The notes beneath the pieces were generated by a model that was not told where the DNA came from, ran no database searches, and was given only the letters and a program-made list of their open reading frames with translations. 16,647 nt of DNA, taken from a virus. Taxonomy: Duplodnaviria > Heunggongvirae > Uroviricota > Caudoviricetes. Below, piece after piece: positions 2,555 to 3,603 of the stretch. The position numbers and the translations under genes are program-made. Location of the stretch: the IMG/VR virus record IMGVR_UViG_2531839195_000012, one strand, 5' to 3'. The stretch's first letter is position 1. Every line of letters begins with the position of its first letter.

Positions 2555-3603
2555 TCATTTTATCAAAAATGGCCCACCGACTGTCCTCGATAGCCAATGG
2601 CCAATTTTATCTGATACATATACACAAATACAGGTATATATGATTGCGCAGATAGGATTTGGAATAGTCACGCTGAAGCCTATAATTGCTAAAGCCATAG
2701 GGATAAATAATTTGGTGATATACTCCATTCCACATATGTTAAGAGTATTTCTTCCAGCTCTTACAATAAAGTCATTTCCACAAATTATTTTTGCTATGAA
2801 AATATTAAAGATTATCAAGCCTACCGTGGTGATAATAGTATTAATAGCTTGAATATAACTACTTGATATTATGTCTGCATTGAATATTGAGATAATCTTA
2901 AAAAGTAAAGGTTTCTGGTTAAGTAGTTGATACGCACTCATTATAGCGGTAATTGAGAAGACAATGAAACCAATTTTAGATTTTCCAAAAAACCTGTCAC
3001 GTGTTAATTCTAAAAACATACATCTACCGAGAGGCAATAACCACCAGTATGCCATAGCGGAGTCTATGTTCCAAAACCATTGAGGATCTAGTAATGGGTT
3101 ATGATTGAGCACTGTTTGTGACAACATGAACGATAACAGTGATATGATTAAAATCACTATATTGTTCTTGACTATTTCTCTAAAGATTGCATCAATTGCT
3201 ATTATAACAAAAAGGCAGTTTATAAACCATATTGTTCCTACGAATTGGTTATTTCTAACACCATATATTATATCATAAATGTGGTTGTATATATAATCAA
3301 TCGTCTCACCTGAGTTAATTGTGTTTATTATTAATATAGAAAATGCAAAAGTGAAATATGGAATCATTAATCTGTAAAACTTTGACTTGATATAATCGAA
3401 AACAGATAAGTCATTTTTTTTGATAGTAAAAAACCAGCAGCGAAAAAGAATAGTGGGACGTGATAACTAAAAACAAAAGGATACAATTTGCCAGCCCCCA
3501 ACCCAAGGTGACCTAAATATATAGCAAAAATACCGAGAAATTTTAAAGCATCAACCCAATCATGTCTTATTTTTCTGTTGCTGTCGATTTTGTTATTATA
3601 CAT
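2555..3603 (-). pseudogene. O-antigen acetyltransferase, acyltransferase-3 family (Oac-like), split into two frames near 3367
   Basis: ORFs 3367..3603 (78 aa) and 2555..3367 (270 aa) are contiguous on the minus strand. The N-terminus carries acyltransferase-3 signatures (R-x-D-x(14)-H in RHDWVDALKFLGIFAIYLGH, then FFFAAGFLL); the rest is a polytopic membrane protein. Combined length of about 348 aa fits Oac/OafA-type enzymes. Very AT-rich. Confidence 0.6.

Follow-up and report, generated by a model that had tools for sequence, protein, structure and literature searches.

The window analyzed here, a stretch of 16,647 bp that is 100% identical to the entire draft contig AKMZ01000016.1 (GCA_000268025.1), carries a gene for an acyltransferase-3 (AT3) membrane protein that is read as two open reading frames (ORFs, Table 1). 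This raises the question of which acyltransferase is encoded and whether it is broken in the strain or only in the assembly. The gene is oacD, the ortholog of SfII_25 in the Shigella flexneri prophage SfII, and thus an already characterized O-antigen acetyltransferase gene that is nothing new in kind. Its split is probably an artefact of the contig, and the strain probably possesses an intact and functional oacD. The group O-factor 10 that is linked to oacD is one epitope weighed in S. flexneri 2a vaccine design and in genome-based serotyping, so that calling oacD functional from assemblies has practical weight. In this contig, the loss of one base from a run of seven T residues (T7) would lead to the strain being wrongly, or at least unprovably, scored as O-factor-10 negative, and three similar miscalls would score it gtrII negative.

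Table 1. Features of the oacD locus, with positions counted from the first letter of the window
Feature	Position	Strand	Remarks
gp53-like tail-fiber protein	727-1377		colinear with SfII
Tail-fiber assembly protein	1286-1747		colinear with SfII
Bidirectional intrinsic terminator, perfect palindrome	2524-2555	.	ATAAAAAGGCGCAATTAATTGCGCCTTTTTAT; directly 3′ of the oacD stop codon
oacD, AT3 O-antigen O-acetyltransferase gene	2555-3603	-	1049 nt as read vs 1050 nt
C-terminal ORF, 270 aa	2555-3367	-	OacD residues 80-349, begins at internal M80; from translation
N-terminal ORF, 78 aa	3367-3603	-	58 native residues (M1-F58) plus 20 out-of-frame residues; from translation, PF01757 and alignment to the intact allele
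A8 tract, second slippage site	3414-3421	-	6 nt downstream of the T tract; unaltered in the window
Lesion, T6 on the coding strand (A6 on the plus strand)	3428-3433	-	T7 in intact alleles; from alignments to E. coli SCU-124 and SfII
GGAGAG, Shine-Dalgarno-like motif (candidate)	3614-3619	-	10 nt before the ATG; read from the sequence
IS4-family (ISSfl9-like) transposase	4054-5242	+	between oacD and gtrII; apparently broken by two 1-bp homopolymer deletions
gtrII	5632-7089	-	three apparent breaks
gtrB	7086-8015	-	SfII
gtrA	8012-8374	-	SfII
1-bp homopolymer miscall sites	679, 1711-1716, 4439-4447, 5102-5107, 5846-5853, 6060-6067, 6659-6665, 8938, 9026, 9058, 12817, 14479		

Identity and organization of the gene

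The assignment to oacD follows from both sequence and gene order. Positions 718 to 8639 of the window are colinear with SfII (KC736978) at 99.57% identity, and the identity amounts to 99.8% between 2300 and 3900. The SfII counterpart is a single 1050-nt gene, SfII_25, that is annotated as "acyltransferase" and is followed by an annotated terminator. When the missing T is restored, the product of 349 aa shares 347 residues with OacD of phage SfII (AGQ45515.1; Sun et al. 2014) and differs from it by I68V and S320A. The same product is exactly the commonest Shigella OacD, which is present on at least 1000 public contigs. The gene order is that of SfII (tail-fiber genes, oacD, IS4-type element, gtrII-gtrB-gtrA), and the Pfam assignments of the neighbors agree with it. 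The initial annotation had placed the gene between the tail-fiber genes (727-1747) and the first gtr operon (5632-8374), which is correct, although the IS4-type element in between was not mentioned. Compared to SfII, the window differs by its T6 run, which leaves ORFs of 78 and 270 aa, and by an IS600 copy that cuts the SfII prophage just upstream of the gp53-like gene. Among 5426 complete E. coli genomes, oacD is present in only 11, each time within an SfII-like prophage.

As had been pointed out before, oacD is AT-rich compared with the insertion sequences (GC of 0.316 vs 0.49-0.54 in the IS600 and IS3-family copies; 0.437 in the whole window). A similarly low GC content is seen in gtrII (0.319), and gtrA and gtrB have values of 0.42 to 0.43. 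oacD and gtrII look like separate low-GC acquisitions. The claim that the gene has its own palindromic terminator also stands: the palindrome folds with -18.7 kcal/mol (z = -4.7), which is matched by none of 200 shuffled sequences, and the SfII record lists it as a rho-independent terminator. At the 5′ end, the GGAGAG motif may serve as the Shine-Dalgarno-like site of oacD. A scan for sigma-70-like promoters upstream of the start returned none at its threshold, and Rfam and tRNA scans gave no matches in or near the gene.

Another gtr cluster, at 15215-16491 and followed by a gene that starts at 16504, belongs to SfX (P22-like). The part inside of the window consists of gtrA, gtrB, whose product has 305 aa, and a gtrX gene that is cut off after 48 codons. 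The gene that follows gtrB in relatives specifies a protein of 421 aa, which is 100% identical to the SfX glucosyltransferase. If gtrII is intact, the combination of gtrII and gtrX is the serotype 2b genotype.

Family, fold, and conserved motifs

The intact OacD of SfII matches the Pfam family PF01757 (Acyl_transf_3) over residues 15 to 287 with 47.1 bits (E = 2.2e-12; curated cut-off of 31 bits), and all 87 homologs found in a database search carry this domain. The gene had therefore been rightly described as encoding an AT3 membrane protein. Taken separately, the 78-aa piece scores 31.4 bits, just over the cut-off, and the 270-aa piece alone has no match in Pfam. Homologs with 43 to 58% identity are found in Buttiauxella, Erwinia, Leclercia, Proteus, and E. 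coli, and with about 35% in Clostridium; some sources label homologs as "fucose 4-O-acetylase-like". Searches of NCBIfam, PHROGs, and PDB sequences with OacD gave no matches.

The AlphaFold2 model of P0018, an allele with 98% identity, is all-helical (pLDDT 94.3, pTM 0.91) and takes on 19 helical elements with about ten hydrophobic spans, which is compatible with the expected topology of roughly ten transmembrane (TM) helices. The best PDB folds for the model in Foldseek are those of human HGSNAT (8jkv, 8vly, and 8vlu), with probabilities of 0.99 to 1.00 and TM-scores of 0.47 to 0.51 at weak E-values of 0.06 to 0.09. HGSNAT is a transmembrane acetyl-CoA-dependent acetyltransferase; in contrast to OacD, it is a lysosomal enzyme with extra domains that N-acetylates the glucosamine of heparan sulfate, and its identity to the model is about 11%.

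TM1 harbors an R/K-X10-H pair, K21 and H32, each of which is conserved in at least 90% of the sequences in a 51-sequence alignment. Both residues are located upstream of the frameshift, inside of the 78-aa ORF. A basic motif of the first cytoplasmic loop (K75-F-Y-R78) is found further downstream, and OacD has been described as carrying a lysine in place of one arginine of the RXXR-type motif (PMC8952252). The allele P0018, which is full-length and present on 9 S. flexneri contigs, has a tyrosine in place of the near-invariant H32. Judged by this substitution, P0018 may be a missense-inactivated variant that is scored as functional by presence/absence typing.

Comparison with other O-acetyltransferases

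The initial annotation called the protein Oac-like, which holds at the family level only. Like OacD, Oac (OacA) of Sf6 is a stand-alone AT3 protein (87.6 bits to PF01757) from a serotype-converting phage. A profile alignment aligns K21 and H32 with R11 and H22 of Oac, and K75 and R78 of the loop motif with R73 and R76, at an hhalign probability of just 78% (E = 1.8e-5, 18% identity, N-terminal 125 columns). A close kinship is rejected, however, as the pairwise BLASTP comparison is not significant (E = 0.42). A tblastn search of 50,697 phage records with OacD retrieved SfII and two unrelated phages, not Sf6. Sf6 Oac acetylates O-2 of RhaI, whereas OacD is reported to act on O-6 of GlcNAc, and sf6 oac lies next to int in a P22-like phage, whereas oacD lies next to a gtr operon.

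OacB and OacC (Sf101, transposon-like element) are, like OacD, horizontally acquired AT3-only O-antigen acetyltransferases of S. flexneri, but they acetylate O-3/4 of RhaIII. The identity between OacD and OacB is reported to be 13% (PMC8952252). While oacB is located a few kb from the locus in two relatives (L021 and L022), the window does not contain it. OafA and OafB from Salmonella (AT3-SGNH) share with OacD the AT3 membrane domain and the proposed acetyl transfer from the cytoplasm. In these enzymes the final transfer is performed by a fused periplasmic SGNH domain, which is absent in OacD.

Function of intact OacD

The function of OacD is known from literature on phage SfII and S. flexneri strain 2457T. 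Three papers citing Sun et al. (2014, J Bacteriol 196:3656) attribute the 6-O-acetylation of O-antigen GlcNAc, which gives group O-factor 10, to oacD of SfII (PMC8973906, PMC9558356, PMC8952252), and the specificity for O-6 is taken from them. The same papers place oacD and gtrII together on the SfII prophage, which lies between proA and adrA. Deletion of oacD in 2457T leads to the loss of O-factor 10 (PMC8973906). By NMR, O-acetylation is absent in an oacB/oacD double knock-out of 2457T, and the GlcNAc acetylation is retained in an oacB mutant in which oacD is still present (PMC8623282). Because oacD adjoins the gtr operon and O-antigen acetylation by its intact form is published, the locus combines a glucosylation and an acetylation module. 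This had been recognized before, but the combination is not new, as phage SfII is defined by it.

The acetyl transfer can be outlined from the literature, combining established knowledge of the family with deduction. OacD, the product of an accessory (moron) gene of the serotype-converting SfII, is a stand-alone AT3 protein of the inner membrane, which it spans with about ten helices over its 349 aa. Cytoplasmic acetyl-CoA would act as the acetyl donor. Subsequently, the acetyl group would cross the inner membrane via a channel that is lined by the conserved Lys/Arg-X10-His pair of TM1 (K21/H32), and, on the periplasmic side, would be attached to GlcNAc of the O-antigen repeat at O-6. The outcome would be group O-factor 10, in parallel to the glucosylation by GtrA, GtrB, and GtrII, which are encoded 2 kb away.

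Site and effect of the frameshift

The gene had been reported as split near 3367. The two ORFs do meet at this position, but the lesion itself lies 61 to 66 nt upstream of it in the gene, where T7 is shortened to T6. This one T is the sole length difference between oacD of the window and the intact alleles, and it is what interrupts the 349-codon frame. The codons GGT TTT TTT ACT (G57 F58 F59 T60) are changed to GGT TTT TTA CT…, and the shifted frame meets a TAA 20 codons on. Both ORFs share coordinate 3367 because this TAA overlaps the ATG of M80. Neither ORF as read could work, since the 78-aa piece contains just TM1 and TM2, the K75-R78 (KxxR) motif is in neither ORF's frame, and the 270-aa piece lacks K21 and H32.

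Slippage alleles in public assemblies

The exact 78-aa product is present on 34 public contigs, all of the T7-to-T6 type, and the exact 270-aa sequence is present on 143 contigs, where it arises from several different upstream lesions. The reading that the T6 allele does not exist at all and is purely an artefact is ruled out by the presence of both exact products in many independent assemblies. Further alleles at the T tract and at the A8 tract are T8 (6 contigs), A7 (52 contigs and two haplotypes, including loci L023, L024, and L027), and A9 (4 contigs); an 11-bp deletion further on is found on 65 contigs, including CP058589.1. Loci with altered alleles at or near positions 3414 to 3433 are L020, L023, L024, L027, and L030. 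As shown by these T6, T8, A7, A9, and deletion alleles in S. flexneri assemblies, oacD has been inactivated repeatedly, mostly inside of a 21-nt stretch (window 3414-3433). Since true slippage alleles of both tracts are also in circulation, read-level confirmation of this site is needed before a serotype is inferred.

The slippage alleles reflect either plain mutational decay or a low-rate switch. T6, T7, T8, A7, A8, and A9 are all observed, as phase variation would require, but the tracts are short and the T6 carriers are largely clonal. It is unlikely that the T7 and A8 tracts (codons 57-64) act as a low-frequency ON/OFF switch of O-factor 10, since the T6 carriers share 4204T, which indicates clonality, and a frameshift-stimulating structure after A8 is absent. 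If such a switch existed, lineages would repeatedly lose, and perhaps regain, the GlcNAc 6-O-acetylation under immune or phage pressure.

Assembly error or true frameshift

The contig has a pronounced pattern of errors in homopolymers. Between 718 and 8639, the window differs from SfII by seven 1-bp indels, all of which are deletions in A/T runs of at least 6 nt. By run length, deletions affect 0 of 42 runs of 5 nt, 2 of 12 runs of 6 nt, 2 of 4 runs of 7 nt, 2 of 3 runs of 8 nt, and the single run of 9 nt; besides the T7 of oacD, 1 of the other three 7-nt runs and 3 of the 4 runs of 8 to 9 nt are shortened. Run lengths were compared across 30 loci, with 11 T6-bearing and 8 T7-bearing later draft or complete assemblies as the comparison set. 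Six of the seven deletions are absent from the later assemblies compared, save two sites in L036 (4439-4447 and 5846-5853). Three of the six recur in the early drafts AFHA01 and AFHB01, and two of these three are the ones that also occur in L036. The seventh deletion, the T6 of oacD, is unlike the other six shared with other assemblies. Over the entire contig, later draft or complete assemblies lack at least 10 other 1-bp indels in homopolymers, of which a single one is not a deletion; outside of the SfII part, these private indels are located at 679, 8938 (where an A is added), 9026, 9058, 12817, and 14479. The miscalls falsely break the tail-fiber assembly gene as well as, at two sites, the IS4-type transposase and, at three sites, gtrII; in the IS600 copy at 8995-10260, they extend orfB to 306 aa. 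Most later assemblies have an intact gtrII (486 aa), transposase (396 aa), and tail-fiber assembly protein (144 aa). The exceptions are gtrII in L036 (428 aa called) and in L030 and L032 (no gtrII called), and the transposase in L036 (183 + 212 aa).

The surrounding sequence points in the same direction. At site 4204 the window has a C. Every one of the 8 intact T7 loci that share its haplotype carries this base, compared with only 1 of the 11 T6 assemblies. On the SfX side (11576-16647), there are 0 substitutions compared to CP058589.1, which has T7, and 13 together with a different arrangement compared to CP055138.1, which has T6. From the private homopolymer indels of the contig and from the match of the 4204 marker and the SfX side to T7 strains, we infer that the split is most likely an artefact; the T6 is more likely an under-call in base calling or assembly than real, and the strain probably carries the known oacD in intact form. 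The initial annotation had proposed a structural analysis of the O-antigen for the case that the gene proves intact on resequencing, and this caveat was apt. The opposite argument, that the T6 is certainly real because it is shared, is weakened by the early-draft nature of the contig and by the 4204 marker and T-run state, which separate the window from the main T6 lineage.

A true T6 that turns oacD into a null pseudogene, with translation ending after 78 aa, is the less probable explanation. The allele occurs in 11 independent and otherwise clean-looking assemblies, including the complete genomes CP050985.1 and CP055138.1 with intact neighbors, and one T6 assembly (L013) equals the window at every substitution site, 4204 included. 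CP050985.1 and CP055138.1 are also the two complete genomes of arrangement A with gtrII and gtrX, the genotype of the window. In a third gtrII and gtrX genome, CP058589.1, oacD is broken differently by the 11-bp deletion, so that loss of oacD seems to be common on this background. Fittingly, the published entry for a 2b isolate reads "oacD gene with frameshift" (PMC13614632), and the serotypes given for GlcNAc 6-O-acetylation are 2a, 3a, Y, and Yv, with 2b not among them (PMC8952252). If the T6 were real, the strain would combine type II and group 7,8 glucosylation (gtrII and gtrX, serotype 2b genotype) without O-factor 10. This reading has to contend with the under-called homopolymers of the contig, with the grouping of the window with T7 strains rather than the main T6 lineage, and with the overall rarity of the allele compared to the intact one (34 vs at least 1000 contigs).

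It is very improbable that the T6 is real but leaky or reversible, with the T7 and A8 tracts acting as a slippage switch 6 nt apart. Here, the correct frame would be regained by a -1 shift of the ribosome or slippage of the RNA polymerase on A8, which reads A_AAA_AAA in the T6 frame, and the product would differ from the wild type at F59L, T60L, and I61S only, leading to low-level or phase-variable O-factor 10. Public S. flexneri assemblies contain all four ±1 products that the two tracts can give, and A7 occurs on two different haplotypes, but sequencing errors may account for some of these alleles. A7/U7 runs are noted to undergo indels and transcriptional slippage readily, and for an IS element it has been proven that A_AAA_AAA acts as a -1 frameshift motif (PMC4066793). 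A stimulatory RNA structure 3′ of A8 is absent, however (MFE of -5.1 kcal/mol, z = +0.70), and programmed -1 frameshifting is rejected for this reason. Basal -1 slippage on A8 could make the T6 allele slightly leaky. In addition, the tracts are shorter than those of classical contingency loci, and the linkage of 4204T in 10 of 11 T6 carriers argues for clonal inheritance rather than frequent switching. That the AT3 protein modifies another target, for instance peptidoglycan or another glycan, is extremely improbable. AT3 proteins do act on many substrates (PMC9558356), the homologs include the "fucose 4-O-acetylase-like" entries mentioned above, and OacD is named by no NCBIfam or PHROG family, but the knock-outs of 2457T link oacD to GlcNAc O-acetylation and O-factor 10, and the gene sits in the serotype-conversion module of SfII.

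Prophage context of the locus

Three IS600 copies bracket the prophage remnants in the window (1-718, partial; 8995-10260; 13155-14417), the last of which splits the phage int gene that adjoins the SfX gtr cluster. An ALIL frameshift pseudoknot (Rfam RF01497, 113 bits) is present at 10635-10751, inside of an IS3-family element (10301-11606). In other genomes, the oacD-IS-gtrII module with a frameshifted oacD is found behind tail and baseplate sets that are not those of SfII, namely a P2-like one in L006 and L025, where the contig breaks inside of gtrII, and a different one in L020. The distribution of the serotype-conversion module over prophage backbones is thus mosaic. The commensal E. coli SCU-124 (L001, NZ_CP051706.1) harbors an SfII-like prophage next to vat with an intact oacD, and its gtrII, gtrB, and IS transposase are annotated as frameshifted.
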